Below are positions 179-50,831 of a DNA stretch of 64,000 nucleotides, one piece after another; position 1 is the first letter of the stretch; each line of letters opens with the position of its first letter. The notes under the pieces were generated by a model. The model did no database searches and was not told the DNA's origin. It worked only from the letters and a program-made list of their open reading frames with translations. This DNA is from Candidatus Obscuribacterales bacterium (GTDB taxonomy: Bacteria; Cyanobacteriota; Vampirovibrionia; Obscuribacterales; Obscuribacteraceae). The position numbers and the translations under genes were made by a program. Location: assembly GCA_021732025.1 (NCBI GenBank), contig JAKFVU010000080.1, forward strand, positions 162,656 to 226,655, read 5' to 3'.

Positions 179-1039
179 ATGAACAATAATCAAAACCCTC
201 TGGGCCTCCCAGAGATGGTCGATCACGTCAAAAAGATGCTGACCGACCCCGAAATTCTGCGACTGTACGACGAAGGTGACAAGCTTTCCAGCTCGCAGAC
301 CAAACACGACGTCGGCCACGCTTTCTCAGTTCTCAACACGGCTCGCTATCTCACCGATGAACTGACCAAGCGTTTTCCCGGTTGCCTCAGCGACGAAGCT
401 CGTCTGGTGGTCATCCCGGCCGGCGCCTTCTTGCACGATATCGGCCGCGCCATCAGCGTTGATGACCATGCCGAAGCTGGCAAGAAAGTGGCACAAGACT
501 ACCTCAGCGCCAAAGACTTCCCCACCAAGGTGGTCTCTCGCGTTGCTGCTGTGGTCGCCTGCCACCGCTCCGACAAATTCCTGGGCATCTCCATCGAAGC
601 GTTGAAGAAGTTCCCGGAATTGGCCATTGTCGTTATCGCTGACAAGTGTGTCGGCGACGAAGACCGTGTGCGCCCCAACCGTGCCTTTGCCCTGCGCGCC
701 CTGCGTATGGTCGGCCTCGCTCGTACCAACTTCTGGAACAACGCCGAGCACGACCGGGTCAACTTCGCCATCAAAGACGCCCAGCTTCTGGTCGACTCTG
801 ACGACGCCTGCACGCCAGAACACGCCGGAGCGATTGTGCTCAAGCTGGTTCTCGACGAGAAGGTGGCGCCGGCATCCGAGCTGCTCTCGCTCTACGGCAA
901 ACGCTTCCACTCTTGTGGTCGTGCCGCCAAGAGCCTCGGTTTCGTCTTCCGTATCGAGGTCAACTCGGTGCGTTTCATGTACGACGACGTCACCAACCAG
1001 TGGCGGCCGCTTGAGTGCTTCAGTGTGCAACTGCCCTAA
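179..1039 (+). CDS. HD-domain metal-dependent phosphohydrolase family protein
   Basis: 286-aa ORF. HD-superfamily residues are visible (HDVGHAF, AFLHDIGR, ACHRSD). AGGAG lies just upstream of the ATG. Codons in this frame are strongly C/G-ending, so antisense ORF 326..1117 is a shadow. Confidence 0.65.
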   Translation: MNNNQNPLGLPEMVDHVKKMLTDPEILRLYDEGDKLSSSQTKHDVGHAFSVLNTARYLTDELTKRFPGCLSDEARLVVIPAGAFLHDIGRAISVDDHAEAGKKVAQDYLSAKDFPTKVVSRVAAVVACHRSDKFLGISIEALKKFPELAIVVIADKCVGDEDRVRPNRAFALRALRMVGLARTNFWNNAEHDRVNFAIKDAQLLVDSDDACTPEHAGAIVLKLVLDEKVAPASELLSLYGKRFHSCGRAAKSLGFVFRIEVNSVRFMYDDVTNQWRPLECFSVQLP

Positions 1040-1076
1040 TAAGGCATAAGCGCTTGAGGTAAGCAGGAGAAGGAAA

Positions 1077-1106
1077 GTTTCTGGCTCAGGCCAGAGACTT
1101 TTTCTT
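1077..1106 (+). terminator. Rho-independent terminator candidate after the HD-domain gene
   Basis: Stem GTTTCTGGC/GCCAGAGAC with loop TCAG, followed by TTTTTCTTC. The hairpin can extend to about 20 bp (1066..1110). Confidence 0.55.
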
Positions 1107-3920: not shown

Positions 3921-3954
3921 GCATATTAAGAGACTGACAAATTAGTAGTGAAAA

Positions 3955-5715: not shown

Positions 5716-5812
5716 AAACATATGGCCAACAGGCATGTAAAGTGATCTTTTGGCGTACTATTGCTGCCATTAGATATAATCCCCCTCCTCTCAGAGTGTA
5801 ATTTAGCCACAG

Positions 5813-6849: not shown

Positions 6850-7923
6850 ATGACCCGAACCACCATATGCGGTATCACCGCATTACTTTTCTGCACCATC
6901 ATCGCCCTTGTTTTGTACCTGCAACCTGGTTCTCACCAGCCTGATTTTGCTCCAGGAACCACAGTGCGAGTTTTCTTGCCCGTCGAAGGCAGCACAGAAA
7001 AAGTTCGCTACGAGCGCTACGCCAGCGATCGAGTGAGCCGCACAGTCACTGACATTGAGTACGTCGACGGCGGCAGCGAACAAATAACTTACTGGGGCGA
7101 CAACAATTTGCGGCGCACCTCGATCAAATACTTCAACAATCAGGTTAAGAGCAAAGCCACCTTTGACCACCAGACCGGTAAGTACTACACGAGCCATCAG
7201 GTCTACCGCCTAGACGGCACCCTGGAACGCGCCGGAGAGCTGCTTACCGACGGTCGCTATCAGACTAGCTATTATTGGAGCGACGGCAAAACCTTATCGC
7301 GCCAGCGCCTCTTCAATCCGAATCGAGTCTTTCTCTCCGAGAAGCTCTTTCGCGAAGACGGATCAATCTTAGCTGACGTGGTGCAGGCCCAATCTAATCA
7401 GAGAGAAATAGTGCTCTATTGGCCCAATGGCGCTCGCCAAGCCAACTACAGCACAAATCTGGTGAACGGCGCTCGCGGAGTTTTCTACGGCGAAGACGGA
7501 GTGACAATCGTCTGTGAGTTCTACCGCTCATATTGGCTCGCCGAAGAACTTTACCTCAACTCAGCAGGCAAGGTCTGGCAGCAGCGCCTCACTTACTCAG
7601 GCAACGGCTCTCAGACCATCAACCTCTATGCAGCTGACGGTTCACTGGCAGCGGTACAGATGTGGAAGTTGCGCCCAGCATCAAATGGCAAGCCCGCTTA
7701 CAAGCTCTTGTCGTCGATAGCGCTCTATCGCAACAGCGACAAACCCTATCGCATCATCACTGCCACCAACGGCAAGCTTGATGGTGTCAACGAGGCCGGC
7801 CAAGATGCAACAGGTCAGCAAATCGCAGACCCAGTCTTACTGGTTGAACCAGCTAGCAGCACCATTCCAGAACCAGGCTTGACTGAGCGTGGTGCACCTA
7901 AGCTTGTCTATGACTATGAGTAA
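6850..7923 (+). CDS. membrane-anchored repeat protein (possible MORN/YwqK-like beta-hairpin repeats)
   Basis: 357 aa. N-terminal hydrophobic helix (ICGITALLFCTIIALVLYL) followed by recurring Y/W-x-DG/NG units (YYWSDGKTL, LYWPNGARQ, FYGEDGVTI, LYAADGSLA). The family call is tentative. Confidence 0.5.
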   Translation: MTRTTICGITALLFCTIIALVLYLQPGSHQPDFAPGTTVRVFLPVEGSTEKVRYERYASDRVSRTVTDIEYVDGGSEQITYWGDNNLRRTSIKYFNNQVKSKATFDHQTGKYYTSHQVYRLDGTLERAGELLTDGRYQTSYYWSDGKTLSRQRLFNPNRVFLSEKLFREDGSILADVVQAQSNQREIVLYWPNGARQANYSTNLVNGARGVFYGEDGVTIVCEFYRSYWLAEELYLNSAGKVWQQRLTYSGNGSQTINLYAADGSLAAVQMWKLRPASNGKPAYKLLSSIALYRNSDKPYRIITATNGKLDGVNEAGQDATGQQIADPVLLVEPASSTIPEPGLTERGAPKLVYDYE

Positions 7924-8127: not shown

Positions 8128-9930
8128 TTAAGGCATTTTGCTTGGTTCCACTTTCTTCACAGCTGCAGCTGGAGCGGAAACTTTCACCATCCAATCAACC
8201 AGAGCATCGCCGTCGGGGGCCCCCCAGCCGCTCGGATGGTCCCACTTCGGTCCCGCCTGATAGCCCGGATATCCAGCACCATGGCCGGCACCATTGTTGC
8301 CTTTGGTGACGTCATAAAAGTACTTGCCATAGTCAGCCGAGTTGCCGATGCGATAGACATACGGATTGGCAGAGCCAACACGTTTGCCCGCAGCTTCGAC
8401 AGTCAGCCCCCAGAGCGCAGCCCAAGAAGGCGCCGAGGCACTAGTGCCACCGATGCGCGACCAGTTGCCCTGGAAGTAGAACGAATAGCCGGTATTCGGA
8501 TCAGCGTTCATTGAGACGTCAGCACTGGCACGCTTGTCGCCACCAGGCAAACCGCTACCAACCTGCCAGCTCGGGCGCGACCAGTGGTCGGAAACACCGC
8601 CACCAGAACCAGTCCAGGCCGGTTCGGCTGTGCGCACGCCGTCCTGCTGGGTCATACTCGTGCCACCAACCGCGGTGAAGCGAGGATTTGACGCTGGATA
8701 GTCGACGGCCCACTTGGGCACTTCTTTGCCCTTGCTCTTGATCTTGCAATCGTAAGCACCGTCGTCTCCGCTGGAGACAAACAAGGCAATACCCTGAGCA
8801 GCCAGTTGTTTGAAGACCATGTTCTCGGTCTTCATCATCAGCCAACCAGTGCCCCTTTCACAAAGTCCCCAACTGACCGACATCACCGACGCTTCGTTAT
8901 CAATGGCGACCTGGTTAAAGGTCAGGGCAAAGTTGACGAAACTCGGATTGACAGCCATGTACATCAGCACATCGGCGTCAGGCACCTGTGAGCTGAGTAG
9001 CTGCAAATCGAGAGTAGTCTCTTCTTCGAATTTGCCACTCAAGCCGTTGATAGGGCGGTCAATCAATTGGCCACCACGAACGATGCCATGACGCTTCCAG
9101 TAAGCTTCGATGTCTTTGATGTCGTAACCGTAAGCCGTGGCAATGGCAATTTTCACGCCCTTGCCACTGTAGACCTTGGCCGGAACATTCTCATTGTTGC
9201 TGTTGGGAAAGTTGTAGACCGTGGCAATGTCTTGCGGTGTGTGCGCCTGAGACTGAGCACGCTTCGCCGGCGCTTTGCTGTGAGCAATGCGGCTTTCCAT
9301 CTGAGCATAAGTGTTGAGGCCAATGACAGACTCGACCACATCTTTGAGGTGAATCGGTACCACCGGGTCACGATCATTGCTCAAGTAGAACTTTGCCGCC
9401 GTTGAATCAGGAGCATTTGCTTGACCAATGGTCGATTGGTTGACTATGGTGTCGACCGAATACTCGTTGATGGTGACGTTGAAGGCTTTTTCCAACTGAG
9501 CAACAGTACCTTCAGCATGAATCATCAGGCGGTTCTTAGGCACTGACTTAATCTTCAGGCCCTGACTGGTAAGGTAGCGCACGGTCTCGTCCACGTCGTG
9601 AGTGGCTGGCGAGAAGTGAGCGATGAACTGGTCGGTGCTGAGAAACTGCTGATATTGCGGCGAATCAGGATTCTGCAAACTATCAAGCAGGGCGTCGAGA
9701 TCGGCCTCGTCACGAACTTTGAGGCCGACTAGAATTTCCAGGCGGCTCTCAGGATTGGCGTGCCTGACCAACTGCGACTCACCGAGAATTTCGGGAGTGT
9801 TACCAGAAAGAGTGACACCACCGGTGATGACAGAGAAAGTAGGACCGCGTTGCACAAGCCACACGGCGGTGACAGCCACAAATGTGAGTGCCAAGATGCG
9901 CAATAGCGCTTTGATTGAAACAAACTGCAT
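8128..9930 (-). CDS. secreted S53 (sedolisin/kumamolisin-like) serine peptidase with pro-domain
   Basis: 600 aa. N-terminal signal/anchor helix, a pro-kumamolisin-like N-terminal region, and the catalytic-serine motif GGTSASAPSWAALW. AGGAG lies upstream of the ATG. Confidence 0.8.
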   Translation of the reverse strand: MQFVSIKALLRILALTFVAVTAVWLVQRGPTFSVITGGVTLSGNTPEILGESQLVRHANPESRLEILVGLKVRDEADLDALLDSLQNPDSPQYQQFLSTDQFIAHFSPATHDVDETVRYLTSQGLKIKSVPKNRLMIHAEGTVAQLEKAFNVTINEYSVDTIVNQSTIGQANAPDSTAAKFYLSNDRDPVVPIHLKDVVESVIGLNTYAQMESRIAHSKAPAKRAQSQAHTPQDIATVYNFPNSNNENVPAKVYSGKGVKIAIATAYGYDIKDIEAYWKRHGIVRGGQLIDRPINGLSGKFEEETTLDLQLLSSQVPDADVLMYMAVNPSFVNFALTFNQVAIDNEASVMSVSWGLCERGTGWLMMKTENMVFKQLAAQGIALFVSSGDDGAYDCKIKSKGKEVPKWAVDYPASNPRFTAVGGTSMTQQDGVRTAEPAWTGSGGGVSDHWSRPSWQVGSGLPGGDKRASADVSMNADPNTGYSFYFQGNWSRIGGTSASAPSWAALWGLTVEAAGKRVGSANPYVYRIGNSADYGKYFYDVTKGNNGAGHGAGYPGYQAGPKWDHPSGWGAPDGDALVDWMVKVSAPAAAVKKVEPSKMP

Positions 9931-9997: not shown

Positions 9998-11090
9998 TTA
10001 GACTTTGGGCAGAGCGCAAGCACTGCCGTTCATCGTTTCCAGCACGGCAACACGCTCAGAAACGGGCGGGTGAGTGAGCTGGAGGTAGCGCCAGAAAGCC
10101 TTGACCTTCTGCCAAACCGTGGTGGCCTGTACTTCGACACGCACGTCGAAAATCGGGTCGATGGTCATGATCGGACGTAGTGCTCGATAAAGCTCAGCTT
10201 CACGGCCATGCGGGCGGTTCTTCTCGACGTATGCGACCAGCTTGATCAGTGCCGAAGCAAGATCGCAAGGATGGCCAGTCATGAGAGAGCCAGTGGCATC
10301 AGCGGCAGATTCACGCGAACGCATGACAAACATCTGCACTACTTTGGTCAGCTGGCCAGTCACCTGAAAAATCAGGAACATGACGACGTATTCGAGGATG
10401 CCCCCGAAGAAGCCCTGGGGCTGCTTCTGACCGTTGACCTTAAGGCCAAAGCTGGGCTTGAAGATGCGAATGCCGGAGAGCAAAAGGCGCACGCCGGCAT
10501 CGGTGATCATGAAGAAAATCATCGAGAGCACAGACAGCATCGAGTTGATACCGACGTCGTAGTTCTTGACGTGGCCGAGTTCGTGAGCAAAGACTGCTTC
10601 GATTTCTGCATCGGTCATGCCGGTGAGAAAGAGGCCTTTGGTGGCAGCGACGACCGCTTTGCGGTGAATCGGACCAGTGGCAAAGGCGTTGGGAAGCGGA
10701 TTGTCAGAGACATAGACCGGAGGTTTGAACTTCAGACCACTTTTGGCGTAAACCCGATCAACAATGGCCAAGAGCCGCTGGTGCTCTGGGTTGTTCGGAT
10801 CAGCAGGAGTGGACTTGGTCATGGCGATAGCGATTTTGGCGCTGAACCACCAGCTCAGAACAGGAACCAAGAACCAGAGCAGGCCGAAGCCTAGCTGGAA
10901 ACGGTAGCTGTAGCCGAAGCAGGCCGAAGCCTAGCTGGAAACGGTAGCTGTAGCCGAAGCCGGCAAAAGCAGCGAAAATCAAAGCGCCCATGGCACCATA
11001 ACCAAGCAGGGTTTTGAGCCAAGTGACAAGTAAGCGGCGACGCATCTGAGAGTAATTCGGGTCGTCGGGCCCGATTGAGCGGTGAGACAT
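9998..11090 (-). pseudogene. htpX: htpX-like M48 zinc metalloprotease, reading frame broken by a 40-bp tandem duplication
   Basis: The N-terminal TM part (MSHRSIG...FAGFGYSYRFQLGFGL, with GGAG upstream of the ATG at 11090) and the catalytic part (HELGHVKNYD) lie in different frames. Deleting one 40-bp copy joins them as ...GFGLLWFLVPVLSWWFSAK... Confidence 0.75.
10881..10960. repeat. perfect 40-bp tandem duplication (2 copies)
   Basis: 10881..10920 is identical to 10921..10960 (AGGCCGAAGCCTAGCTGGAAACGGTAGCTGTAGCCGAAGC). Each unit starts and ends with GCCGAAGC microhomology. The length is not a multiple of 3. Confidence 0.97.
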
Positions 11091-11655: not shown

Positions 11656-11688
11656 CAATTCCTATGACCTAGGCAATTCTGCTTTGCC

Positions 11689-11955
11689 CTAGCTGACCTG
11701 ATTGCGCCGGGCGAACTTGCGCGCGCCAGAGCCGAGGCCTAGCACACCGCAAGCAATCAAAACATAGCTGGCAGCGGCAAAGCCACCGGCCTGAGCAGCA
11801 GGAAGAAGCAAGGCGAAGACGCCGAAAGCGATCCACGACAAGCCACCAACCACACGACCAAGACCGCGAATTGACTCGGCTTTGGCCAAGAGCGAAAGAG
11901 CGTTCAGCACGGCCAAGGCCACGGCAATGAAGAACAAGAGAGTGAGTGTGTTCAT
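11689..11955 (-). CDS. small membrane protein (about 3 TM helices)
   Basis: 88 aa, almost entirely hydrophobic/Gly/Ala with a basic C-terminus. AAGGAA upstream of the ATG. C/G-ending codons. Confidence 0.6.
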   Translation of the reverse strand: MNTLTLLFFIAVALAVLNALSLLAKAESIRGLGRVVGGLSWIAFGVFALLLPAAQAGGFAAASYVLIACGVLGLGSGARKFARRNQVS

Positions 11956-11997: not shown

Positions 11998-13446
11998 TTA
12001 GGCGCCGTGTTTCATCAGGTCGACAACCACCCGCAGATGGGGGAAGGCAGCCTGCATGTAACGACCAACGGCGAGCACGTCTTCGTCGCTGGGCTGATAA
12101 GTGCCAGAGTTACCGTTGATGTGAATGACGCCATCGGTGTCTTTCCAAACTTCACCAGCGAAGAGCACATCAGGATCGTAGCCAGAGGCAAGCACATGCT
12201 TACTCAAGATCCAATCGATGAGCTTGACACCAACAGTGGTGCGAGCAACGATGATCTTCTTGACCGTGATCACCAAGTTGTACTTGTTCGACTTCTTGAC
12301 ACTGTCGGTGCGCAACATGTCGTAGACATCACGCTCACTCTTGAGACCGAGGTCGGCGTAAGAAGGAGCCAATATCTTGTGAATGAGCTTGATGACAAAC
12401 TTCGAGAACAGCACTCGCTTCTTCAAGCGCGTCACCAGACCCGGGTTTTTCTGCGGGAATGGCTTGAGCCGCTCACTGAGATAGTCGAGCGGATTGACCC
12501 GTGTTTGCTCGCCGGTAAAGAGAGCATGAGCCCCCCAGAACTGCCGCAAAACTGCGCCCGTTGACGACGGCACAGAAAGCTTAACCGTGAAGTCACGATG
12601 ATACTCAGCAGTGGCAGGCAGTGCCGGAGCCACTTCACGAGAAATCACAGGGGCGGTCGCTTTGATGCCGACCAGACCGCCCACGGCGGCAACAAGCTTG
12701 AACGGCGAAGTAACAACAGCCCGAGCCGCTTTCCAAACCTTGCTCTTCTGCGCCTTGGCTTCGAGCATGCGCTCGCCATGACGACAGAAAGTCATAAGCT
12801 CAGCGGCAATGATCTGGCGAGCATAGCTCTCCATGTTGGCCTGGGTAGTGCGCACCACCTCAAGCTCGACTGCTTTGCCTTCGAACTCAAGACCATTGCT
12901 GAGCAGATAGCTGAGCAAGGCGTAGGGCATGTAGATGCTGCTCAGCTTGCGCTTACCCGAGGTGAAGCCGGCGTCTTCGAGAACACGCAGATTGGCGTTG
13001 ACGCAGGTCATGTATTTCTTGCCGTGATGCACACGCATCGCCGCACGAAGCTTCTCAGCCGCGTGGTCGGGCAAGCCGATAAAGCGCAGCATGATGCCCG
13101 ACTGCACGAAGTTGCGCGTATCTTCCACCACCGACGGTGCACGCTTGAGAGACTTGGCAGCGAACTTTTCGTAGCCGCCCTTGCCGTCAGGCACAGTCAG
13201 GTAGACATTGGGCAGGCCGAAGCCAAGAAAGATTTCGCTCTTGCCGGCGAAGAGATCAGAGATGCGGAAGACCCGCAAATCTTGAATGGTCCGCTCGCGG
13301 ATGCTCGAAGCGTCGACTACCTGATCGACGTGGGAGCCAAAGAGAAACTCGGGGCGCCGCTCGAAGTGCTGCGCAAAGCCCGCATCGGTGTTCAATGCAG
13401 AATTTTCCATATTTTTATATCCGGTTGGGCCAGTGAAAGGCTTCAC
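11998..13446 (-). CDS. hypothetical protein (no family recognised)
   Basis: 482-aa ORF (GTG at 13446, alternative ATG at 13410). Strong C-ending codon bias supports this frame. The antisense ORFs 12007..12564 and 12598..13449 are shadows. Confidence 0.6.
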   Translation of the reverse strand: MKPFTGPTGYKNMENSALNTDAGFAQHFERRPEFLFGSHVDQVVDASSIRERTIQDLRVFRISDLFAGKSEIFLGFGLPNVYLTVPDGKGGYEKFAAKSLKRAPSVVEDTRNFVQSGIMLRFIGLPDHAAEKLRAAMRVHHGKKYMTCVNANLRVLEDAGFTSGKRKLSSIYMPYALLSYLLSNGLEFEGKAVELEVVRTTQANMESYARQIIAAELMTFCRHGERMLEAKAQKSKVWKAARAVVTSPFKLVAAVGGLVGIKATAPVISREVAPALPATAEYHRDFTVKLSVPSSTGAVLRQFWGAHALFTGEQTRVNPLDYLSERLKPFPQKNPGLVTRLKKRVLFSKFVIKLIHKILAPSYADLGLKSERDVYDMLRTDSVKKSNKYNLVITVKKIIVARTTVGVKLIDWILSKHVLASGYDPDVLFAGEVWKDTDGVIHINGNSGTYQPSDEDVLAVGRYMQAAFPHLRVVVDLMKHGA

Positions 13447-14449: not shown

Positions 14450-14730
14450 AGTAATTCCCGTTATGTTTGCCAGCAATGTGTTCGCAGTCAGCACTCGAAA
14501 GAGCGGGGCGAAAATTGCTTAGATAGTGTGGCTGATTGGCGTTAAGGTTTCAGGGATATTCACACTAGAGAAAGAGAAGAGTTATCTTTACAACTTACCC
14601 GCGTGCGGCAAGCTAGAACAAGAAACTAAATCTCATACTGCTTGGCTTCTCTCTAATTACACTTCATACTACTCATTTATGGCACAAACTTGGCCCAAGC
14701 CTCAGTTGCCAAGCGCTAGCGGCGGTCGCG

Positions 14731-31278: not shown

Positions 31279-31334
31279 GTTTGTAATCCCAAATTGGGGC
31301 ACGCCCTCGCAAAAATCACAAGGGCGTGCCCGAT

Positions 31335-33398: not shown

Positions 33399-33981
33399 AG
33401 TTTCTCCAGAGTTTCTGCGTGAACAGAGTTGTTCTGTCCGTGCAGTGGTAAAGAGAAGCTTCAAACCAGGCACAAATAACAAACACACTCGCCGTCCGTA
33501 ACAAAGCAGTGACTACCCACATGCTTGTTGCATCAGTTACGGAGGTTGCTAGCGGTAAGGCTGTGGTGTTTGTCGTTGATGGCGGCTTAAAGTTTCTCGA
33601 GGAAATGGTTGATGGGTAGTTCCCAAGAGACTAGATAAAACTATGGGCGCAAAGCTAGTGAATACTAGGAAGTGAGCCATATCTTAGATCATGAGCTATC
33701 GCTAGCATTAGTGATATATCTACTGCATATCACGACAACAGAGGGCCTGATGCGTCTGCAAAACAGAGTAAACACTAGGCGACACCAATTCCAGAAGCGA
33801 TTAGCGATTAGCGAACAGATGACAGAGGCGATTAGCAGAAGCTAAGTCGAGGCTAACCTAGCGCGGCTAGGTGAAGTAGCAGAACTTAGTGCCGCAATCC
33901 AAAGACTGGTGGCAATATGAAAATCAGCTCAGCTAGGCGCTGAAGCTAAGTCTAGATTAGGCTGAAGCCTGGTTAGCAGTA

Positions 33982-36185: not shown

Positions 36186-37616
36186 ATGTCTAATAACACG
36201 AGCTCCACGCCGCAAACCATGCGCGTTGAACGAGACTCGATGGGAGAAATGTCGGTACCAACCAATGCCTATTGGGGTGCCAGCACTCAACGAGCCGTTC
36301 TCAACTTTCCTATCAGCAACCTGCGCTTTAGCCGTTCGATGATCAAAGCACTCGCTCTCATCAAAATGGCCGCAGCCCAGACCAATGCTGAAAATGGAGA
36401 CCTACCAAAAACTTTCGCCGATGCCATTGTCGTTGCCGCTCAAGAAGTAGCCGATGGTGCATTAGACGAACACTTCGTCGTCGATATCTTTCAAACTGGT
36501 TCAGGCACTTCGACCAATATGAACGCTAATGAGGTGATTGCTCGGCGTGCCGGTCAACATCTCAGCGTGGTCGAAAACAGTACTGCCAGCAAAATCCATC
36601 CCAACGATCACGTCAACATGGGTCAGTCGTCCAACGACGTCATTCCCACTGCCATCCATTTGGCTGCCCTCCTCGACATCAAAGAGCAGTTGCTGCCTGC
36701 TTTGCGAGAATTGTCGCGCTGTCTGGGCCGCAAGGCAAAGCAGTTCGACAAAGTAATCAAAACTGGTCGCACGCACCTGCAAGACGCAACGCCGATTACT
36801 CTCGGGCAAGAATTTCTCGGCTACAAAGGCCAAGTCGACAACGCCATCAAACGCTTGCGCTATGCCCAGAACAGGTTGTCGCAAGTTGCTCTCGGTGGCA
36901 CCGCCGTTGGTACTGGTATCAACACTAAAGCAGGCTTTGCCAAAGCAACTTTGAGTGCGCTTTCAACCTTGGCCGCAGTCAAGGTAAAGGAGACCAGCAA
37001 CCACTTTCAGGCGCAGAGCAGCATTGACGAAATTGTCGATTGCAGCGGCGTTCTCAAAACAATTGCCACCAGCCTCTACAAGATTGCCAACGATGTTCGC
37101 TGGATGGGTAGCGGGCCAAGGGCCGGTTTAGCCGAAGTTGTTTTGCCGGCGGTACAGCCTGGTAGCTCAATTATGCCTGGCAAAGTCAACCCGGTTATTT
37201 GCGAGTCGACCATGCAGGTCTGCTTCAAGGTAATTGGAAACGATGCCACTGTGACGTTGGCTAGCCAGGCCAGCTCATTTGAGCTCAACGTTGCCATGCC
37301 TGTTGCCGCCCATTGCCTGCTTGAATCGATCACGCTGCTTGCCGCAGCCAGTGCCAATTTCAGCAGCAATTGCCTGAAGGGACTTAAGGCAACGACCACT
37401 GGCCCTGATTTGGTCGAACGCGGTCTGGCTCTGTGCACGGCTCTGGCACCAGTGGTAGGCTACGATCTTGCCGCTGAGATTGCTAAAGAGGCAAGCAAAA
37501 CAGGCGAAACAATTTTGCTTGTGGCTCAGCGCAAGACCAGCCTTTCGCTGGAAGAACTGAGCCGTTTGCTTGACCCCTTTGCCATGACAAAGCCGGGGGC
37601 CAAAGGCTCTGACTGA
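36186..37616 (+). CDS. fumC: class II fumarate hydratase
   Basis: RVERDSMGEMSVP..YWGASTQRA, QTGSGTSTNMNANEV, HPNDHVNMGQSSNDV, GRTHLQDATPITLGQE, KIANDVRWMGSGPRAGL and GSSIMPGKVNP all parallel E. coli FumC more closely than AspA. Confidence 0.85.
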   Translation: MSNNTSSTPQTMRVERDSMGEMSVPTNAYWGASTQRAVLNFPISNLRFSRSMIKALALIKMAAAQTNAENGDLPKTFADAIVVAAQEVADGALDEHFVVDIFQTGSGTSTNMNANEVIARRAGQHLSVVENSTASKIHPNDHVNMGQSSNDVIPTAIHLAALLDIKEQLLPALRELSRCLGRKAKQFDKVIKTGRTHLQDATPITLGQEFLGYKGQVDNAIKRLRYAQNRLSQVALGGTAVGTGINTKAGFAKATLSALSTLAAVKVKETSNHFQAQSSIDEIVDCSGVLKTIATSLYKIANDVRWMGSGPRAGLAEVVLPAVQPGSSIMPGKVNPVICESTMQVCFKVIGNDATVTLASQASSFELNVAMPVAAHCLLESITLLAAASANFSSNCLKGLKATTTGPDLVERGLALCTALAPVVGYDLAAEIAKEASKTGETILLVAQRKTSLSLEELSRLLDPFAMTKPGAKGSD

Positions 37617-40315: not shown

Positions 40316-41338
40316 TCAGTCGAGAAGACCGAGAGCCTGAGGCAGCGACACGCCGTCGACTTCGCCGAAGAAAGCGAAGCCAACAGCAAGGGCGATGCCA
40401 CCACCCCAGAGGATAGCCTTGAGCAGCGGATGCATCGGATTGTTCTTCCGATACTCACGCTCACGGCGCTTCACCGACTCAAAGAAGATCTGCTGCTCGC
40501 TCTTGCCGAAGTTGCGGGCAGCTTCTTCGTCCTTGACGGCCTGCTCAGCACGCTCGACTTCAGCGCGCTCAGCGGCACGGCGATGCAACTCAGCGATGAA
40601 GCTGTCGCAGCTCGCCGCAGCCTGAGCACTGATTTCATCCATGCGCGCATTGAACTCAGCGCCGGCCGCAGCATTGAACACCGCCATTTCCGAACGCAGC
40701 TGTTCGCGAGCAGCCTGACCGGCATCGCGGATCATGGCGCAGGCAGCCTGGAAGCGCGGATTGTCATCGATGAGACGATGGCACAGATGGTTCATGGCAT
40801 GGCCGCTGAGGTTCTCAGGAGTCATCTCAAACAGACTACGCTGCTTGAGAAAGTCGTAGAGCGAGTCCTCAGTCAGGCTGGCGATGATAGCCACCTGATC
40901 CTGGCGAGCCTCGACCAGCCGCTCACAGGTCGCCCGCACGATGAAGTCGGTCAACGCCTCAAAGTAAGGCTGCATCGCCAGACGCTCAGCGTCCACCGGC
41001 AGAGTGTGGTAGACGTAAGCAGCAGGGCGCGGAGCCTTGAGCTGGCGGATGAGGCGGCGGCGATAGACCACATCACCCAACTGAGCCGCATCAAAAGTGA
41101 TCTCCTTGGGCTTGAAAATCGACTTTTCACGCACGCTGAGAAGGTTGAACTTCTTCAGGTACTCGCGCAGCTTCGCCAGATAGCTCTCGTCCAGGCGAGC
41201 CTTGTTGAGCAAAGCGCCGTAGAGACGGTGGAAGACCGGAGCGAGGGCCTTCTCGATAGCAGCAATGGCAGTGACGTCGATCTCGTTGTTGCCGGAGTTG
41301 GTGTTGTTGGTGTTGGTGGCAGTGATGGTCGCGGTCAT
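40316..41338 (-). CDS. hypothetical protein with C-terminal TM anchor
   Basis: Starts at the ATG at 41338 (GAGGA 5 nt upstream); the ORF track extends to 41455. Asn/Thr-rich N-terminus, helical Ala/Arg/Glu-rich body, and a C-terminal hydrophobic helix (LLKAILWGGGIALAVGFAFF). C/G-ending codons. Confidence 0.55.
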   Translation of the reverse strand: MTATITATNTNNTNSGNNEIDVTAIAAIEKALAPVFHRLYGALLNKARLDESYLAKLREYLKKFNLLSVREKSIFKPKEITFDAAQLGDVVYRRRLIRQLKAPRPAAYVYHTLPVDAERLAMQPYFEALTDFIVRATCERLVEARQDQVAIIASLTEDSLYDFLKQRSLFEMTPENLSGHAMNHLCHRLIDDNPRFQAACAMIRDAGQAAREQLRSEMAVFNAAAGAEFNARMDEISAQAAASCDSFIAELHRRAAERAEVERAEQAVKDEEAARNFGKSEQQIFFESVKRREREYRKNNPMHPLLKAILWGGGIALAVGFAFFGEVDGVSLPQALGLLD

Positions 41339-41512
41339 GGGAATCCTCATGGGGTTCGCTGTTTCATTAGTTCTAGCCGTTCCAATGGCGGCTAGAGGAG
41401 AGGGCTGCAGTAAAGCAGTAGTGGTAGGAAATCCCGCAATGCACGAGGTAGGCACTGCGAGATTTAGTGGCGTGAGTAGTGTTGCGATTTACGAGAACTT
41501 GCCTGCCGGCAC

Positions 41513-42052
41513 TCAGTGCTCTTTGGGCCCTTGCTGGAAGGCATAGCGGTTGACCCAGGCAACAGCAACTGTCGAAACCACAATCACCAAGTGAACTGCT
41601 ATCAACTTGGCGAGATGGTCATAACTGGCATTGTCGGCCCGAACAAAAGCCTCAAGCAAGTGAATGCTTGAGACGCCCAACATCGACATGCTCATTTTGA
41701 CTTTCAGAGCACCTGGGTCGATGTGCCCCAGCCAAGCCAATTGTGGCAATCGACTCGGCTGATGCTGATCAGTATCACCGTCAGGCTTGCTGAAATCACC
41801 GATGAACAAGACATAGCCGCCAATCATGATCATGACGATCAAATGACTGACCATGACTATGTCGAGTAGGTGTAGCACGGAGATCAGAACCTCGGTGTTA
41901 CTGTATGAAACCGAGTGCCAAGCAAGCTCAGCTGTCTGCACGATGAAACGTACAGAATAGACGAGCAGAGCTATGCTCAGGCCTAGGTACATTGGCAGCA
42001 GCAGAAATCTGCCGCCAAAGACGATTTGTTCGAGAATTCGGTTTGCTTTCAT
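41513..42052 (-). CDS. yqhA: UPF0114/YqhA-family membrane protein
   Basis: Colinear with E. coli YqhA (RFLLLPMYLGLSIAL, LISVLHLLDIVMVSHLIVMIMIGGY, LKVKMSMSMLGVSSIHLL). The ATG at 42052 is preceded by AAGGGG. Confidence 0.75.
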   Translation of the reverse strand: MKANRILEQIVFGGRFLLLPMYLGLSIALLVYSVRFIVQTAELAWHSVSYSNTEVLISVLHLLDIVMVSHLIVMIMIGGYVLFIGDFSKPDGDTDQHQPSRLPQLAWLGHIDPGALKVKMSMSMLGVSSIHLLEAFVRADNASYDHLAKLIAVHLVIVVSTVAVAWVNRYAFQQGPKEH

Positions 42053-42063
42053 CCATTGCCCCT

Positions 42064-42540
42064 TTAGTGACAACCGATTGAATCGATAGCCTCTTCGATC
42101 TTCAACCAGGTGTCACGGTTAGCTTCTTTTATCGCCTCGTGCAAGACGAAATCAACGACCACCGGAGCAGTCAGTTCGTTGACCCAGAGCGTGCTGATAC
42201 ACCAGTAGATGTGATCAACAGTAAGCGTCTTCAAGACAACCTCATGGCTATCTTTGAAGTCACGACGCATCAGGCAGTAGAGGTTGTCTGATACGACGTC
42301 CACCACTTGCTGACGCAGGTTGTCGTCGGCAAGCAAGAGTGTGCGATCCAGTGACAAGGCCGTGCGCACATATGGAAACTTACTCCAAAGCACAGGCGTC
42401 ACCAAAGTGGCCAAGTCGAGCCGGCGCAGGTGCTTACTAAGACTTTCGAACGCTTCTGGGTGAGAAAGTCTCAAATCAAATAATTGAGTCACCAATTCTT
42501 TTACAGCAGAAGGAAATTTATGAGTGGCAAATTCGTTCAT
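42064..42540 (-). CDS. hypothetical protein
   Basis: 158-aa ORF whose stop lies 11 nt before the yqhA-like start. No motif recognised. Confidence 0.5.
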   Translation of the reverse strand: MNEFATHKFPSAVKELVTQLFDLRLSHPEAFESLSKHLRRLDLATLVTPVLWSKFPYVRTALSLDRTLLLADDNLRQQVVDVVSDNLYCLMRRDFKDSHEVVLKTLTVDHIYWCISTLWVNELTAPVVVDFVLHEAIKEANRDTWLKIEEAIDSIGCH

Positions 42541-45012: not shown

Positions 45013-45402
45013 ATGTTCTGGATCATCGCAATTGTGCTTTTCGCCATCTTCGTCTCGCCCCTGCTCCTCGACCCCCGCCGCGCTCAACGTCGCAACGCCA
45101 ACACCGCCGACGACTTGATCGCCCAAGCCGGTTCCGAATACCTGCGTGGTATGAACGATCAGGCATTCATGCACTACCGTCAGGCCCGCGACATCGCTGG
45201 CGCCAACGGCGCCTATCTGCTCGAAGCGGAAGGCAACTACGGCATGGCTCAGGTTTACGAACGCCGCCAAGACTACAACTCGGCTGCGGCATGTCTGCGC
45301 GCCTGCCTGGCCAATCGTGCTCACTGGCAAGACTACAAGCCTAACTATGCTTCGCTCATCGAGAGACATCTCGCCGAAGTCGAAGCGAAACTCAAGCCCT
45401 AA
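45013..45402 (+). CDS. small membrane-anchored TPR-like protein
   Basis: 129 aa with AAGGA upstream. N-terminal TM (FWIIAIVLFAIFVSPLLL) followed by two TPR-like units. C-ending codons identify this frame over 44961..45344 and 44971..45369. Confidence 0.55.
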   Translation: MFWIIAIVLFAIFVSPLLLDPRRAQRRNANTADDLIAQAGSEYLRGMNDQAFMHYRQARDIAGANGAYLLEAEGNYGMAQVYERRQDYNSAAACLRACLANRAHWQDYKPNYASLIERHLAEVEAKLKP

Positions 45403-47446: not shown

Positions 47447-47963
47447 GCATCGCGGCGATCATGTGAAAAACCCGTGATAAAACAGCCTTGACAACCACGT
47501 AAGGCTACTAAGAAAGGCGTAATAATTGAGAAAAATCATGGTGCTTTTCCCACTGTCATCAAAATTACTTCAATACTAAAGGTGAAATGCGATTTAGTTG
47601 CGAGCTTTTTTGCGGCGCCTCAAATCAACTTTCCAATTAGCAGATTCGTCGCATAATAACTACCGCGAAAGCATGACTAGTAACATCTCTCTACGGTTGA
47701 CATAGCTTGTACAGCAGTAACACAGAAGATTAGACACTCTCTAATTTAGAAGGCTTCATGAAAGCTGAATCACCACACCTAGCTTAATAGTGTTACTAGG
47801 TCTTTCTTTCATCCCCTCTCCCTCGCTAAATACTTCCAAAACCAAAGCCCTTGAACTTTCACCCCGAATTTTTTTCACAGATTGTGATCGGGATGTTTAC
47901 GGTTTTGTCATGGCGGTAAAGGACAACGCGAGGGCTCATCGACGTCTATTCACGGAGCATGCA

Positions 47964-50831
47964 ATGCATCTGACCCCGAATAAAGCAACACACAACACCA
48001 TAACTCCCGCCATCTTCAACCCTGCCGGCGCAGTGTTTCTCTTCCCCGAAGCATACGCGGCATTCGCTACTCACGATAACGCCAGCCTCACCAGCAAACA
48101 GCGCGAAGAAATGCGCGCACTTCTCGGCGGTAAGGGCGCCGGTCTTGCCGAAATGACTGCCAGTGGCGTCAGCGTTCCTCCCGGTCTGACTATCACCACA
48201 GCTTCGTGCTTGGCTTACTATGCTGGCGGTTCAAAATTGCCCGAGGGCCTCTTCGAGCAAGTTCTGAGCAAGTTGACCGAAGTTGAAGCCGCCCTTGACC
48301 GCCGCCTTGGCGACGTTAAGAAGCCGCTTCTGCTCTCAGTGCGTTCTGGTGCCAAGTTTTCTATGCCTGGCATGATGGACACCATTCTCAACCTCGGCCT
48401 CAATGACGCCACCGTCAAAGCCTTGGCCAAAGCCACCGACAATCCGCGTTTCGCCTGGGACAGCTATCGGCGCTTCATCCAGATGTACGGCAATGTCGTG
48501 CTCGATATCTCCAAAGAGAGCTTCGAGCATTTGCTGCACGACCTGAAGACCACCAGCGGCGTGACGCAAGACAACGAGCTTACCGCAACCAACCTGAAAG
48601 AACTGGTGCGGCGCTACAAAGAACTGGTGTTGAAGGAGACGGGCACGCCCTTCCCCACTGACACCAGCGAACAGCTCTACGGCGCCGTTGAAGCGGTGTT
48701 TCGCTCGTGGAATAACCCACGCGCCATCTACTACCGCAACCTCAACAAGATTGACCACAATCTGGGCACCGCGGTAACTGTGCAATCGATGGTCTTCGGC
48801 AACCTCGACGACCAGTCGGCCACAGGGGTTTGCTTTACTCGCAACCCCAGCACCGGCGAGAAAACCCTCTACGGCGAATATCTGGTGCGTGCCCAAGGCG
48901 AAGACGTCGTCGCTGGCATCCGCACCCCCAAGAAAATTGCCGACATGGCAGTCGAACTACCCGCGGTTTACGCTGAGCTGGTGGCAACTGTGGCACGGCT
49001 GGAAGACCACTATAGCGACATGCAAGACATCGAGTTCACCGTCGAAAGCGGCAAGCTCTACATTTTGCAGACCCGCACCGGCAAGCGCACGGCTGAAGCC
49101 GCTGTTCGCGTCGCCATCGAACTGGCTGAAGAAGGCATCCTCAGCCGCAGCGCTGCTCTGATGCGCGTCGACCCGATTCAGCTCAATCAGCTGCTCTTGC
49201 CCAGCTTCCATGACCAAGAGAAAGACGCCGCCAAGAAAGATGGTCGTCTGCTCGCTACCGGTCTCAATGCCTCGCCTGGTGCAGCGATTGGCGAAATCGT
49301 CTTCGACCCCAACGAAGCCGAAAAGCGCGGCAGTGCCGGCGAAAAGGTCATTCTGGTGCGGGTTGAAACTTGCCCTGATGACATTCACGGCATCGTGCCC
49401 GCTCAAGGCATTATCACCAGCCGCGGTGGCATGACCAGTCACGCTGCAGTGGTTGCTCGTGGCATGGGCAAGCCTTGCGTCGCCGGTTGCGAATCGTTCC
49501 GCATCGACCTCGACAAAGAGCTTGTGCAGGTGGCTGGCCAGACCCTGAAGAAGGGCGACATCATTTCTATCGATGGTTCGACTGGCGAAATCTTCATCGG
49601 CGCCATTGCCACTCGCCAGGTTGGTCTATCTGAGCAGTTCCAAAAACTGCTTGCATGGGCCGATCTGGAGCGCCAGCTCGATGTGCGCGCCAATGCCGAT
49701 ACCCCGCAAGATGCTCGTGTGGCTCGTCAGTTCGGTGCTCAAGGCATCGGCTTGTGCCGCACCGAGCACATGTTCATGAGCCAAGATCGTCTTCCCGTCG
49801 TGCAAGAGATGATTCTGGCCACGAGCCTGGCTGATCGCCAAGCAGCCCTGGACAGACTGTTGCCCATGCAGCGCGAAGACTTCGCTGGTTTGTTCACCGC
49901 CATGAATGGCCTGCCAGTGACCATTCGCCTGCTCGATCCGCCTCTTCACGAGTTTCTTCCCAAGCTGGAAGAATTGGTGGCAGAAGTGGCAACCCTCAAG
50001 GCCAATGCCAAGAATCGGGCACAGACAGCTCGATTCAAGGTGACAAAGGTGCGGGAAGCAAAGGCGCTGGCCACCCAAGAAAACCTCTTGGCCAAAGTGC
50101 ATGAGCTGCACGAGACCAACCCCATGATGGGTTTGCGTGGCTGCCGCCTGGGCCTGGTCTACCCTGAAATCAACGTCATGCAGGTGCGAGCCATTTTCGA
50201 AGCGGCGATTGCGGTGAAGGCACAAGGAGTGATTGTCGAGCCCGAAATCATGATTCCGCTGATTGGTCACGTGGAAGAGCTCAAGGCCGCCCGTGAAGTG
50301 CTGGAAAAGGTCGCTCGCGAGGTCATGGATGCTGCTGAAGTCACTATCGACTACAAGTTCGGCACCATGATTGAGATTCCGCGGGCGGCCCTCACAGCTG
50401 ACGAGATCGCACAGTACGCAGAGTTCTTCAGCTTCGGCACCAACGACCTGACGCAGATGACTTTCGGCTACAGCCGCGACGACGCTGAAGGAAAGTTCTT
50501 GCAGCACTATCTCGGTGGCGTCGAAGTGAACGGCGAGAAGCGCAAGATTCTCGAGGACAATCCCTTTGCCATACTCGACCGCAAGGGCGTCGGCAAATTG
50601 ATGCGCATGGCTGTCGAAGATGGTCGGGCGCAACGTCCCAACATCAAGCTTGGTATCTGCGGCGAACATGGCGGCGACCCGAGCTCGATTGCGTTTGCTC
50701 ACAAGCTTGGCCTGACCTATGTCAGCTGCTCGCCATATCGCGTTCCTGTAGCCCGCTTGGCTGCGGCTCAGGCGACCATTATCGAGCGGGCCGAGAAAGC
50801 GGGCGCAACCACCTCACAGCGCGACAAATAA
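47964..50831 (+). CDS. ppdK: pyruvate, phosphate dikinase
   Basis: LLGGKGAGLAEM, the phospho-His motif GGMTSHAAVVARGMGKPCV, CRTEHMF and ICGEHGGDP. The ATG at 47964 has GGAG upstream. The ORF-track extension back to 47790 is rejected. Confidence 0.92.
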   Translation: MHLTPNKATHNTITPAIFNPAGAVFLFPEAYAAFATHDNASLTSKQREEMRALLGGKGAGLAEMTASGVSVPPGLTITTASCLAYYAGGSKLPEGLFEQVLSKLTEVEAALDRRLGDVKKPLLLSVRSGAKFSMPGMMDTILNLGLNDATVKALAKATDNPRFAWDSYRRFIQMYGNVVLDISKESFEHLLHDLKTTSGVTQDNELTATNLKELVRRYKELVLKETGTPFPTDTSEQLYGAVEAVFRSWNNPRAIYYRNLNKIDHNLGTAVTVQSMVFGNLDDQSATGVCFTRNPSTGEKTLYGEYLVRAQGEDVVAGIRTPKKIADMAVELPAVYAELVATVARLEDHYSDMQDIEFTVESGKLYILQTRTGKRTAEAAVRVAIELAEEGILSRSAALMRVDPIQLNQLLLPSFHDQEKDAAKKDGRLLATGLNASPGAAIGEIVFDPNEAEKRGSAGEKVILVRVETCPDDIHGIVPAQGIITSRGGMTSHAAVVARGMGKPCVAGCESFRIDLDKELVQVAGQTLKKGDIISIDGSTGEIFIGAIATRQVGLSEQFQKLLAWADLERQLDVRANADTPQDARVARQFGAQGIGLCRTEHMFMSQDRLPVVQEMILATSLADRQAALDRLLPMQREDFAGLFTAMNGLPVTIRLLDPPLHEFLPKLEELVAEVATLKANAKNRAQTARFKVTKVREAKALATQENLLAKVHELHETNPMMGLRGCRLGLVYPEINVMQVRAIFEAAIAVKAQGVIVEPEIMIPLIGHVEELKAAREVLEKVAREVMDAAEVTIDYKFGTMIEIPRAALTADEIAQYAEFFSFGTNDLTQMTFGYSRDDAEGKFLQHYLGGVEVNGEKRKILEDNPFAILDRKGVGKLMRMAVEDGRAQRPNIKLGICGEHGGDPSSIAFAHKLGLTYVSCSPYRVPVARLAAAQATIIERAEKAGATTSQRDK

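Follow-up and report, generated by a model that had tools for sequence, protein, structure and literature searches.

A GC3-rich gene class interleaved with bulk genes in the origin-proximal zone of the Candidatus Obscuribacter chromosome

In single genomes such as those of Escherichia coli and Bacillus subtilis, codon usage separates bulk, highly expressed and horizontally transferred genes. Here we describe an atypical class in Candidatus Obscuribacter, a non-photosynthetic member of the Cyanobacteriota (Melainabacteria), from a stretch of 64,000 nucleotides (the window, G000:C4:162656-226655) in which genes using mostly G- and C-ending codons are interleaved with genes of the ordinary host type. 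As in E. coli and B. subtilis, this minority is unlike both the bulk and the ribosomal class and is separated mainly on the third codon position; however, it is GC-richer and not AT-richer than the host, is kept in place gene by gene between species, is melainabacterial for both genes tested, shows reduced synonymous divergence and is concentrated near the replication origin. Atypical composition is routinely taken as a mark of foreign DNA or of high expression, and this class, rich in G+C at third positions (GC3), fits neither: its silent sites are slow and its codon direction is opposite to that of the ribosomal-protein genes.

G+C3 structuring along prokaryotic chromosomes, reportedly described by Daubin and Perriere in 2003, is said to change smoothly by a few percent along a region and to affect all genes. 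The Obscuribacter pattern is similar in that third-position GC varies with position relative to origin and terminus; however, interleaved neighbours differ by 0.3-0.4 in GC3 and bulk genes of the same zone are unaffected. GC-biased gene conversion (gBGC) in bacteria has reportedly been treated by Lassalle et al. Starvation-robust codons, which depend on selective charging of tRNA isoacceptors, are attributed to Elf et al. in 2003, with an effect in E. coli that is said to be modest. Obscuribacter would share with that system two dialects tied to physiological state, and its classes diverge mainly in boxes with several isoacceptors and agree in pyrimidine-ending (Y-ending) boxes with one tRNA, Glu (one tRNA) being almost unshifted. 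It differs in that the closed 6.69-Mb chromosome of another Obscuribacter species (G003) shows only a UUG tRNA for Gln, yet the GC3-rich class uses CAG at 0.76, and no Pro-CGG tRNA, yet CCG reaches 0.37.

Earlier experiments with synonymous variants on genic G+C were reportedly published in PNAS in 2012. A further study of synonymous variants reportedly finds selection for higher genic G+C independent of translation (PMC4478552). The likeness to Obscuribacter is a benefit of G/C at synonymous sites that is unexplained by tRNA matching; the difference is that the force there is weak and genome-wide, whereas in Obscuribacter it would be strong on a defined set of genes and would hardly touch the rest. 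Bacterial recombination landscapes are also similar, with a peak near the origin (Ori), hot spots kept between relatives and a link between recombination, GC and G/C-ending codon bias. The correlations in one survey are weak, on average a rho of about 0.05 for G/C-ending codon bias (PMC11879095); the Obscuribacter effect is very large, is delimited by genes and is restricted to about 3% of them, and recombination is shown for one gene, an M13 endopeptidase gene. The pattern was not found in the Obscuribacter and Melainabacteria literature searched for codon usage and for GC content with horizontal gene transfer, the supplements of the cited papers being unopened. Obscuribacter is present in many genomes and environmental samples, and if selection maintains the class, it would be a natural system for roles of G/C silent sites beyond tRNA matching.

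A distinct class of GC3-rich genes and its chromosomal location

The window belongs to a metagenome-assembled 4.61-Mb draft (G000) of 85 contigs and 47.4% GC, 84% complete and with 0.92% contamination. Genes were called with our own iteratively trained codon model on open reading frames (ORFs), which gave 3778 genes covering 89% of the draft; starts are those of the longest ORF, so that 5' ends are possibly too long. Across the 3627 genes of at least 100 amino acids, GC3 has a median of 0.460, a robust standard deviation of 0.042 and a right tail up to 0.86. Above the median plus four robust standard deviations (0.630) there are 76 genes, where 0.12 are expected under a normal distribution, and only seven lie equally far below the median. 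A two-component mixture is preferred over one component (Bayesian information criterion -11397 versus -10177), and the shape is a narrow mode with a heavy right tail, not two clean modes. The earlier note on this DNA, made from the sequence alone, had claimed two codon-usage classes interleaved on the contig; this is borne out by a tail far beyond chance, and the per-gene GC3 check that it proposed favours two components without separating two modes.

Genes with GC3 of at least 0.60 were taken as GC3-rich; their composition (0.60-0.86 against 0.46) is atypical for the host. They number 96 of 3627 in the genome, about 3%, and 13 of 52 in the window (hypergeometric p=3.7e-10). The GC3-rich and intermediate genes of the window, with one bulk comparator, are the following.

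179..1039, plus strand: HD-domain protein (Pfam HD), GC3 0.74
6850..7923, plus strand: 357-aa protein without Pfam match, GC3 0.61; differences to G003 and G002 ordered by codon position as third > first > second
8128..9930, minus strand: sedolisin-type (S53) peptidase (Pfam Pro-kumamolisin activation domain and Peptidase_S8), GC3 0.61
9998..10870, minus strand: HtpX-like M48 membrane zinc protease (Pfam Peptidase_M48), GC3 0.66
11689..11955, minus strand: 88-aa ORF, GC3 0.65; third codon position the most variable
11998..13446, minus strand: 482-aa protein without Pfam or NCBIfam match, GC3 0.68 (0.62-0.73 in five species)
13490..14494, minus strand: NUDIX-domain protein (Pfam NUDIX), GC3 0.55, borderline (0.52-0.59 in five species)
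19766..20833, plus strand: DeoC/LacD-family (fbaB-like) aldolase (Pfam DeoC), bulk-class comparator, GC3 0.44
26210..28237, plus strand: M13 (PepO-like) endopeptidase (Pfam M13_N and M13), GC3 0.84, the most extreme gene of the window
30871..31302, minus strand: 143-aa ORF, GC3 0.65
31371..33488, minus strand: 705-aa protein without family match, GC3 0.76; antisense shadow ORF 31365-33422 (685 aa)
36186..37616, plus strand: class II fumarase (Pfam Lyase_1 and FumaraseC_C), GC3 0.58 (0.55-0.61 in five species)
40316..41455, minus strand: 379-aa protein without family match, GC3 0.70
41513..42540, minus strand: UPF0114 (TIGR00645-like) membrane protein (Pfam UPF0114) and a 158-aa ORF, GC3 0.59 and 0.57
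45013..45402, plus strand: 129-aa ORF, GC3 0.71
47964..50831, plus strand: H-type pyruvate, phosphate dikinase (PPDK, gene ppdK; NCBIfam TIGR01828, 1320 bits, above cut-off), GC3 0.66-0.68
60953..63344, no strand assigned: group of small ORFs, GC3 0.59-0.65

The genes that the earlier note had listed as G/C-ending are all in the tail except the NUDIX gene 13490-14494, which is borderline at 0.55. The neighbours that it had named as ordinary (1227-5715, the fbaB-like gene 19766-20833, 51246-53315 and 54114-58824) do have GC3 of 0.38-0.49. GC3-rich or intermediate genes that it had missed are 6850-7923, 30871-31302, 41513-42540, the fumarase gene 36186-37616 and the group 60953-63344, which lies beyond its end coordinate.

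The six long antisense ORFs quoted for this contig are all present in the mechanical ORF list and are codon-aligned shadows, whose frame lacks stops because the sense gene avoids TTA, CTA and TCA. Among 2767 genes of at least 200 aa, the longest stop-free antisense run covers a median of 96% of the gene at GC3 of at least 0.70 (n=29) versus 18% at GC3 below 0.50 (n=2315), and gene finders will meet such full-length shadows. The strand of the GC3-rich genes without Pfam match is backed by the order of differences by codon position (third > first > second) in seven of seven genes compared with G003. In 31371-33488 these differences are 0.139/0.070/0.264 for the first, second and third positions, which favours the minus strand, and the frame of 11998-13446 is backed by the same order; compared with the contigs of another species (G002), one of the seven genes, 11689-11955, has the second position slightly above the first, with the third still the highest.

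The switch in composition takes place at gene boundaries, as had been claimed: GC steps at the ends of the coding sequence (CDS), within one 100-nt bin. In 100-nt bins, the M13 gene shows GC of 0.40-0.44 before, 0.57-0.67 inside, and 0.43 then 0.35 past the stop codon, and ppdK shows 0.38-0.42 before, 0.52-0.62 inside, and 0.35 then 0.34 after. Flanks of isolated GC3-rich genes are at the bulk level (GC 0.35-0.44), and spacers inside the GC3-rich block 8128-14494, which is opened by the S53 peptidase gene, drop to 0.38-0.39.

The window is colinear with G003 at 1.66-1.73 Mb and with contigs of three further species (G002, G004 and G012). Gene order and GC3 are the same in these four genomes for the genes covered, so that there these GC3-rich genes are neither absent nor displaced, as those of a genomic island would be; exceptions, described below, are the M13 gene in some genomes of the genus and a block at 58.9-66.3 kb. 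Across the five species, GC3 is 0.84/0.85/0.83/0.82/0.83 for the M13 gene and 0.76/0.77/0.73/0.74/0.73 for the 705-aa protein gene, with bulk genes at 0.41-0.57; it is 0.74/0.76/0.76/0.73/0.70 for 179-1039 (G000/G003/G012/G004/G002) and 0.61-0.67 for 8128-9930. In nine species the M13 gene has GC3 of 0.78-0.85 and its flanking genes 0.41-0.55.

This conservation bears on the possibility that the mosaic is an assembly or binning artefact, a chimera of two organisms, for which the draft and metagenome-assembled state of G000, with its incompleteness and contamination, could be invoked. However, the junctions are bridged at even depth by contigs from runs of two other studies, in X6 by record 22 (25787-27627) and record 23 (28245-36466) and in X8 by record 29 (24935-26524) and record 31 (27599-37118), and the same mosaic and gene order are repeated in the closed chromosome and in the three further species. 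The continuity check that had been advised against a chimeric assembly therefore comes out in favour of a real mosaic, and we give the artefact next to no weight. Among the matches listed, the stretch 24001-34000 was found in 20 runs of nine studies, three of which are possibly the source itself.

In G000, 78 of the 96 GC3-rich genes are on C4 beyond 103 kb, C3 before 101 kb, C18, C21 and C75; 78 of the 319 genes of those segments are GC3-rich, compared with 18 of 3308 elsewhere. In G003, markers from these contigs are located at 1.66-1.73, 1.95, 2.49 and 3.08 Mb. The GC skew of G003 changes sign at 2.43-2.61 Mb and 5.78-5.96 Mb, and dnaA is at 2.58 Mb, which places the origin near dnaA and the terminus near 5.9 Mb. 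In G003, 43 20-kb windows were sampled, which together make up 13% of its length, nine of them off the grid (six contiguous at the syntenic region, two at marker matches and one at the ribosomal operon), and genes with GC3 of at least 0.62 were counted. Of the 77 such genes, 75 are at 1.64-3.09 Mb, that is from -0.94 to +0.51 Mb of dnaA, and the 28 windows outside this zone have two among 434 genes. The grid windows alone give 21 of 111 genes in the zone versus one of 417 outside (27 windows); the further outside window, off the grid, is that of the ribosomal operon. The zone is unevenly filled: no such gene is present in three grid windows, and in the origin-adjacent window all nine genes qualify. 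By eye, nine GC3-rich genes of the window are co-directional with the inferred replication fork and five are head-on, with no clear bias.

Inside the zone, the GC3 of bulk genes is normal. The earlier suggestion of an unusual mutational or repair regime, if taken as a regional mutation bias, does not fit these interleaved genes, whose GC3 and divergence are normal, nor the GC step at CDS ends; some GC-favouring force on the GC3-rich genes themselves is indicated.

The main ribosomal-protein operon of G003 with the elongation factor EF-Tu is at 5.19 Mb (L230), which is 2.6 Mb away from the origin and about 0.7 Mb away from the inferred terminus, and only one tRNA gene (Asp, 2.60 Mb) is in the GC3-rich zone; thus, translation genes are not origin-proximal here.

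Codon choice compared with ribosomal genes and tRNAs

The S10-spc operon of G000 was identified on C20, where 18 of the 18 genes scanned encode ribosomal proteins and an adjacent 394-aa gene encodes EF-Tu. These 19 genes have GC3 of 0.32-0.54. The ribosomal class prefers NNC codons in the two-fold Y boxes, together with CAA (0.73; 0.85 in EF-Tu), GAA, CCA, GCT, GTT, CGT and TTG. The GC3-rich class uses CAG (0.76), AAG (0.78), CTG and CTC (jointly 0.73), CCG and CCC (0.71), GTC and GTG, and GCC; CCA has a share of 0.44 in the ribosomal class, 0.79 in EF-Tu and 0.07 in the GC3-rich class. Preferences are opposite for Gln, Lys, Pro, Leu, Val, Ala and Thr.

Ordinary translational selection, with the GC3-rich genes as the most expressed and their codons as the optimal ones, would agree with the preference for NNC over NNT in two-fold boxes and the avoidance of ATA, CTA, CGA and GGA, which are common to both classes, and with the reduced synonymous divergence described below. 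It is contradicted by the low GC3 of ribosomal-protein and EF-Tu genes and by their opposite choices in seven amino acids, and also by the tRNA set. In G003, 58 tRNA genes are detectable, mostly two copies for UNN anticodons and single copies for GNN and CNN; Gln-CUG, Glu-CUC and Pro-CGG were not found among the 150 of 251 candidates scored with Rfam, a few tRNAs possibly being missed, and the draft G000 gives the same picture. The GC3-rich codons are not matched to tRNA gene dosage, because the duplicated tRNAs are of the UNN type and those for Gln-CUG and Pro-CGG are lacking. We consider this explanation very improbable. The earlier caution that expression alone may not explain the pattern thus proves well placed, and a match of the GC3-rich genes to the ribosomal-protein codon profile, which it had named as the simple outcome, is not seen; of its proposal of translational selection, the ordinary kind fails, and constrained synonymous sites are supported for the genes with the highest GC3. 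Codon-adaptation indices trained on ribosomal genes will rate these genes poorly adapted, and composition-based island finders and binning tools will misclassify them.

Ribosomal genes are also strongly constrained, with a pooled synonymous divergence (p) between G000 and G003 of 0.139 for ribosomal proteins and EF-Tu, and of 0.05 for EF-Tu. The genome therefore has two slowly evolving gene sets with opposite codon choices. A tentative reading of this, which we hold to be rather improbable, is that two antagonistic codon dialects are under similar purifying selection, the ribosomal one and the G/C-ending one of about 100 origin-proximal genes. In the ribosomal dialect, NNC codons would be joined by A/T-ending ones that the duplicated UNN tRNAs decode. 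Many genes of the G/C dialect encode duplicate isoenzymes of peptide, lipid and pyruvate catabolism, and this dialect would partition the proteome at the codon level, such that mRNAs for scavenging or feast-famine conditions are translated or survive when bulk mRNAs are not. This partition would be older than the genus, since a higher GC3 of H-type paralogues is already seen in other genera.

Short contigs of the metatranscriptome X20 include parts of 19885-20585, 27749-28288, 28685-29336, 32923-33166 and 36395-36606; their depth does not allow genes to be ranked, and DNA may be present in the library.

Silent-site divergence, ancestry and maintenance of the class

Over about 72 genes from a single region, synonymous p between G000 and G003 decreases as GC3 rises (Spearman -0.64, p=3e-8), whereas amino-acid divergence does not correlate with it (rho -0.12, p=0.34). 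It is 0.14 for the M13 gene, equal to the pooled ribosomal value, 0.44-0.46 for its neighbours and 0.45 for bulk genes, and 0.23 for 179-1039; in the fbaB-like gene it is also reduced (0.28), with an amino-acid identity of 99%. The ratio of M13 to fbaB-like divergence is about 0.5-0.66 at all depths in nine species, with the exception of one locus (L021) compared with clade A, where it is about 0.23. This roughly constant ratio points to vertical inheritance at a silent rate that is steadily lower.

The reading that we prefer, with a probability of about 0.5, is that the GC3-rich genes are a class passed on vertically and that their G/C-ending codons are under active maintenance. In the origin-proximal zone about one gene in four would belong to this class, largely extra copies of catabolic and housekeeping enzymes long resident in the lineage, and a force on the coding sequence would keep their third positions GC-rich while the remaining genome stays near GC3 0.46. 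The force would be selection on synonymous sites, acting on the choice between G/C and A/T, above all against A, at the level of the transcript or of translation and not through a speed governed by tRNA abundance; in some lineages it may be too weak to stop slow erosion.

Four-fold sites of bulk genes differ between G000 and G003 at 0.58, and differences between G/C (S) and A/T (W) reach 0.43, near the plateau of 0.5. By our own calculation from this saturation, the decay factor is about 0.38 per lineage since the G000-G003 split; therefore, neutral decay needs an ancestral GC3 above 1 for genes now at 0.74 or more, and is too fast to explain the extreme genes. On the terminal branches of five species, S>W changes per site are 0.168 in genes with GC3 of at least 0.72 (very high), 0.340 in those of 0.60-0.72 (high) and 0.426 in bulk genes, and W>S changes are 0.382, 0.467 and 0.452, respectively. 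Thus, GC-lowering changes are suppressed 2.5-fold in the most extreme genes relative to bulk. In the close pair G003-G012 only genes with GC3 of at least 0.72 are slower, at 0.083. The G003 lineage is balanced, with S>W:W>S of 69:65 and 184:192, and G000 and G002 are eroding. C<->G transversions had been tried as a neutral clock and were dropped, as bulk sites are saturated in deep pairs: in three deep pairs every class has the same rate (0.08-0.135 per S site), and in G003-G012 the rate of the very high class is three times lower (0.014 versus 0.040).

The ancestry of the class was approached through paralogues and trees. A paralogue in the genome was found for 28 of 96 GC3-rich genes, and 37 of 56 paralogue matches are bulk-type; the pairs include M13 (0.84 versus 0.46, the bulk copy on C71), M17, M1, FadB, NAD kinase and a sigma factor. 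The bulk copy of PPDK (GC3 0.47, versus 0.66-0.68) is on C10 and 69% identical. The nearest relatives of PPDK outside the genus are Melainabacteria (68-70% identity), with which the bulk copy groups in the tree, the GC3-rich copy being in a sister clade. This H clade (support 100/99) contains the window gene, L129 and the second copy of G032, another genus-level genome, whose H-type PPDK has GC3 0.75 versus 0.65 for the B-type on a background of about 0.6. The H-type clade of M13 (100/99) contains G031 (0.85), G032 (0.66) and one metagenome-assembled genome (MAG) labelled Planktothrix; it is sister to another melainabacterial M13 clade, and the bulk paralogue is elsewhere in the tree. Both genes treed are thus, by their phylogeny, old residents of the lineage and not imports from GC-rich phyla. 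Several independent gains from a GC-rich donor, which the earlier note had offered as an explanation, are contradicted, if taken as recent events, by position and GC3 kept in five species and by the melainabacterial clades of PPDK and M13.

The H-type M13 of the Planktothrix-labelled MAG (L030, DATNPN010000040.1) has 56% identity and GC3 0.77 and groups with Melainabacteria; the contig may be mis-binned or its M13 transferred.

A number of results weigh against active maintenance. The S>W:W>S counts are 155:71 in the very high and 220:107 in the high class, so that the class is off compositional equilibrium, and the implied equilibria are 0.69 and 0.58 versus present values of 0.83 and 0.74 for the sites scored. 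The counts are biased by the use of parsimony with outgroups that are saturated, and repeated hits at fast-evolving W sites push the equilibria down. In G003-G012, genes of 0.60-0.72 diverge at 0.158 versus 0.167 for bulk, with 117 S>W against 58 W>S changes, and resemble sequence in neutral decay. Where both flanking genes are GC3-rich, spacers have GC 0.49 (n=28) versus 0.41 between bulk genes (n=1780), with mixed pairs at 0.44 (n=39); the value of 0.49 is about that of relatives with GC3 of 0.62-0.71 (spacers 0.45-0.53), and the signal is not purely codon-level. The trees cover two genes, PPDK and M13. The M13 gene (26210-28237) is an intragenic mosaic between species, its distance from L021 in 300-nt windows being 0.12 at nt 151-450 and 0.023 at nt 1051-1500, and its tree places L021 by clade A (support 78), where bulk genes give L021 with L022 (100); gene flow thus explains part of the low divergence. 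A prediction of the isoacceptor (starvation-robust codon) idea, made before looking, failed with the absence of tRNA-Gln(CUG) from G003; of its other parts, Glu-CUC is absent as predicted, and for Pro, GGG is present and CGG is not. No convincing shared promoter motif was found among k-mers of 6-8 nt within 200 nt upstream of 59 GC3-rich versus 1938 bulk genes, only GC-rich or CT-rich hexamers (best 11/59 versus 63/1938). By crude hydropathy there is no bias to membrane or secreted proteins: at least one transmembrane-like segment is predicted in 40 of 80 versus 1570 of 3439, and a signal- or anchor-like segment in 16 of 80 versus 690 of 3439.

Several of these results would be expected if the class were an ancient acquisition still ameliorating, which the ancestor of the genus took up from a relative of higher GC within the same order and which has slowly lost GC since. 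The genes would have arrived singly, or together on a GC-rich replicon that was inserted close to the origin and was then split by rearrangements, with later exchange between species partly lowering divergence. The excess of S>W in both GC3-rich classes, the bulk rate of moderately GC3-rich genes in G003-G012, the GC-richer spacers inside blocks, the recovery of a GC3-rich M13 gene in nine of the 14 further genomes of the genus (once as a fragment; it was not found with this query in five) and its inter-species mosaicism agree with this, as do the many second copies of enzymes with bulk-type counterparts and a block at 58.9-66.3 kb without counterpart in the syntenic stretches of G003. Candidate sources also exist in the same group, in which relatives reach GC3 of 0.6-0.84: background GC3 is about 0.7-0.84 in G031, 0.6-0.65 in G032, 0.61-0.67 in G033 and 0.53-0.68 in G016, and ribosomal genes have 0.71 in G031 and 0.60 in G032. 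The GC3-rich class is at about the level of these GC-rich relatives, and Obscuribacter is thus the AT-rich end of its group. However, with bulk sites near saturation, neutral decay would erase the signal, or demand an impossible ancestral GC3, in genes at 0.74 or more; the flanks of isolated GC3-rich genes are fully AT-rich; M13 divergence tracks a vertically inherited gene at all depths but one; and in a second genus the H-type PPDK is also GC3-richer than its paralogue. Lys and Arg content is native-like, with Lys at 0.058 in both classes versus 0.028-0.054 in 14 other loci (0.028-0.047 in all but one). New DNA, moreover, usually gathers away from the origin. An ancient acquisition is on balance a doubtful but live alternative. 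The usage of GAA and GAG was rejected as a discriminator, GAG being 0.29-0.88 in the 14 other loci (GC3 0.47-0.94) and a GAA share of 0.57 not diagnostic.

Recombination hot spots are a further alternative, in which gBGC, or more effective selection owing to reduced linkage, raises GC3 and gene flow lowers divergence. The origin-centred clustering kept between species agrees with it, as do the mosaic and tree conflict of M13 and the similar factors by which C- and G-ending codons rise, together with a GC1 up by 0.057 and block-internal spacers up by 0.08. Silent divergence is uneven along the gene in 2 of 11, 4 of 10 and 4 of 7 GC3-rich genes versus 17-20% of bulk genes, a comparison weakened by the saturation of bulk. 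A survey finds recombination higher near Ori in 66 of 102 species, a positive correlation of r/m with GC in 82% of species and landscapes kept between related species, links that fit the position of the zone; the survey itself favours selection over gBGC (PMC11879095). Conversion tracts are not expected to respect CDS ends, but GC steps there and neighbours 100-400 nt away are unaffected. Not all W-to-S changes are favoured, as GGG (0.04), AGG (0.03) and GAG (0.43) show no rise; the loss of A-ending codons is far greater than that of T-ending ones, and most GC3-rich genes are even in divergence along their length. Hot spots are possible, with the odds well against them.

Four points favour selection on silent sites: the steps at CDS ends, the codon exceptions, amino-acid usage that is native to the lineage, and the parallel found in G032. 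The S>W excess, the GC-richer internal spacers and the recombination in M13 keep both the ancient acquisition and the hot spots alive.

Gene content and neighbouring loci

The Pfam scan of protein families took in 54 proteins of the window and 74 GC3-rich ones from elsewhere in the genome, and 25 proteins were scanned against NCBIfam, which gave nothing for 14 of the 25. The GC3-rich class includes peptidases (M13, M17, M1, two M48, S15, S41, S53 and M28), lipid-related proteins (FadB- and FadD-type enzymes, patatin, PLD, DAG kinase and acyltransferases), GH1, GH25 and glucoamylase-like enzymes, membrane proteins (TerC, MgtC, MscS and UPF0114), NAD kinase, an RpoD/RpoS-like sigma factor, PPDK and many family-less proteins. 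The interleaved bulk genes encode mainly Ser/Thr kinases, TPR proteins, ABC transporters, toxin-antitoxin proteins and regulators. Peptidase families are modestly enriched, with 10 of 88 GC3-rich versus 3 of 98 interleaved bulk proteins (Fisher p=0.04). One IstB-like gene was noted in passing among the 74 proteins, with no search aimed at mobility features.

Within the window, NCBIfam HtpX models match 9998-10870 below their cut-offs, and its paralogues are GC3-rich on C3 and bulk on C10. The 705-aa protein 31371-33488 has no Pfam or NCBIfam match and no usable Atlas match. The UPF0114 protein matches NCBIfam TIGR00645 with 133.2 bits, under the cut-off of 144.4 bits, and has a paralogue with GC3 0.76 at C4:138135-138647.

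From 58902 to the window end at 64000 and on to C4:228974 (L008:611-2975), about 8 kb have no counterpart in the syntenic stretch of G003. This 58.9-66.3 kb block contains small ORFs with GC3 of 0.59-0.68, and, past the window end, a metallo-beta-lactamase-fold gene (0.61) and a 281-aa RpoD/RpoS-like sigma factor (0.70), the latter assigned from Pfam and NCBIfam. The group 60953-63344 has no counterpart in the syntenic stretches of G003 and G002, and the neighbouring gene 59577-60905 is present in G002. The segment 58902-C4:228974 looks like an accessory block inside the zone.

Among bulk-GC3 genes, a DUF4388 protein followed by a small Ras/Arf-like GTPase is encoded at 3955-6400, and eukaryote-like Ser/Thr kinases with TPR or LRR tails are encoded at 54114-58824 and neighbouring loci.

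The highest GC3 of the genome (0.83-0.86) is found in four copies of a 254-aa protein gene, at C4:143879-146776 (L006:10880-13777), where three are in tandem 16-19 kb upstream of the window, and at C18:2020-2784 (L009:2020-2784). Two tandem copies are 100% identical and the others 86-95%; the protein has no Pfam match, and its only NCBIfam match is an FlgL model (E 1.7e-4), far under cut-off. The G003 orthologue of a GC3-rich 654-aa protein of C18 (G003:C1:1945260-1947227) has one TGA and one TAA in frame, and may be a pseudogene or reflect a sequencing error.

An array of about 10 tRNA genes in 2 kb is present at C84:1958-3924 of G000 and at G003:C1:4525010-4527080 (L301), with Tyr, Ser, Asp, Cys, Ile, Met, Asn or Leu, Arg, Ala and Gly, which duplicate tRNAs elsewhere in the genome. 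Furthermore, ARAGORN predicts a tRNA-Sec gene at C30:3081-3176 of G000.

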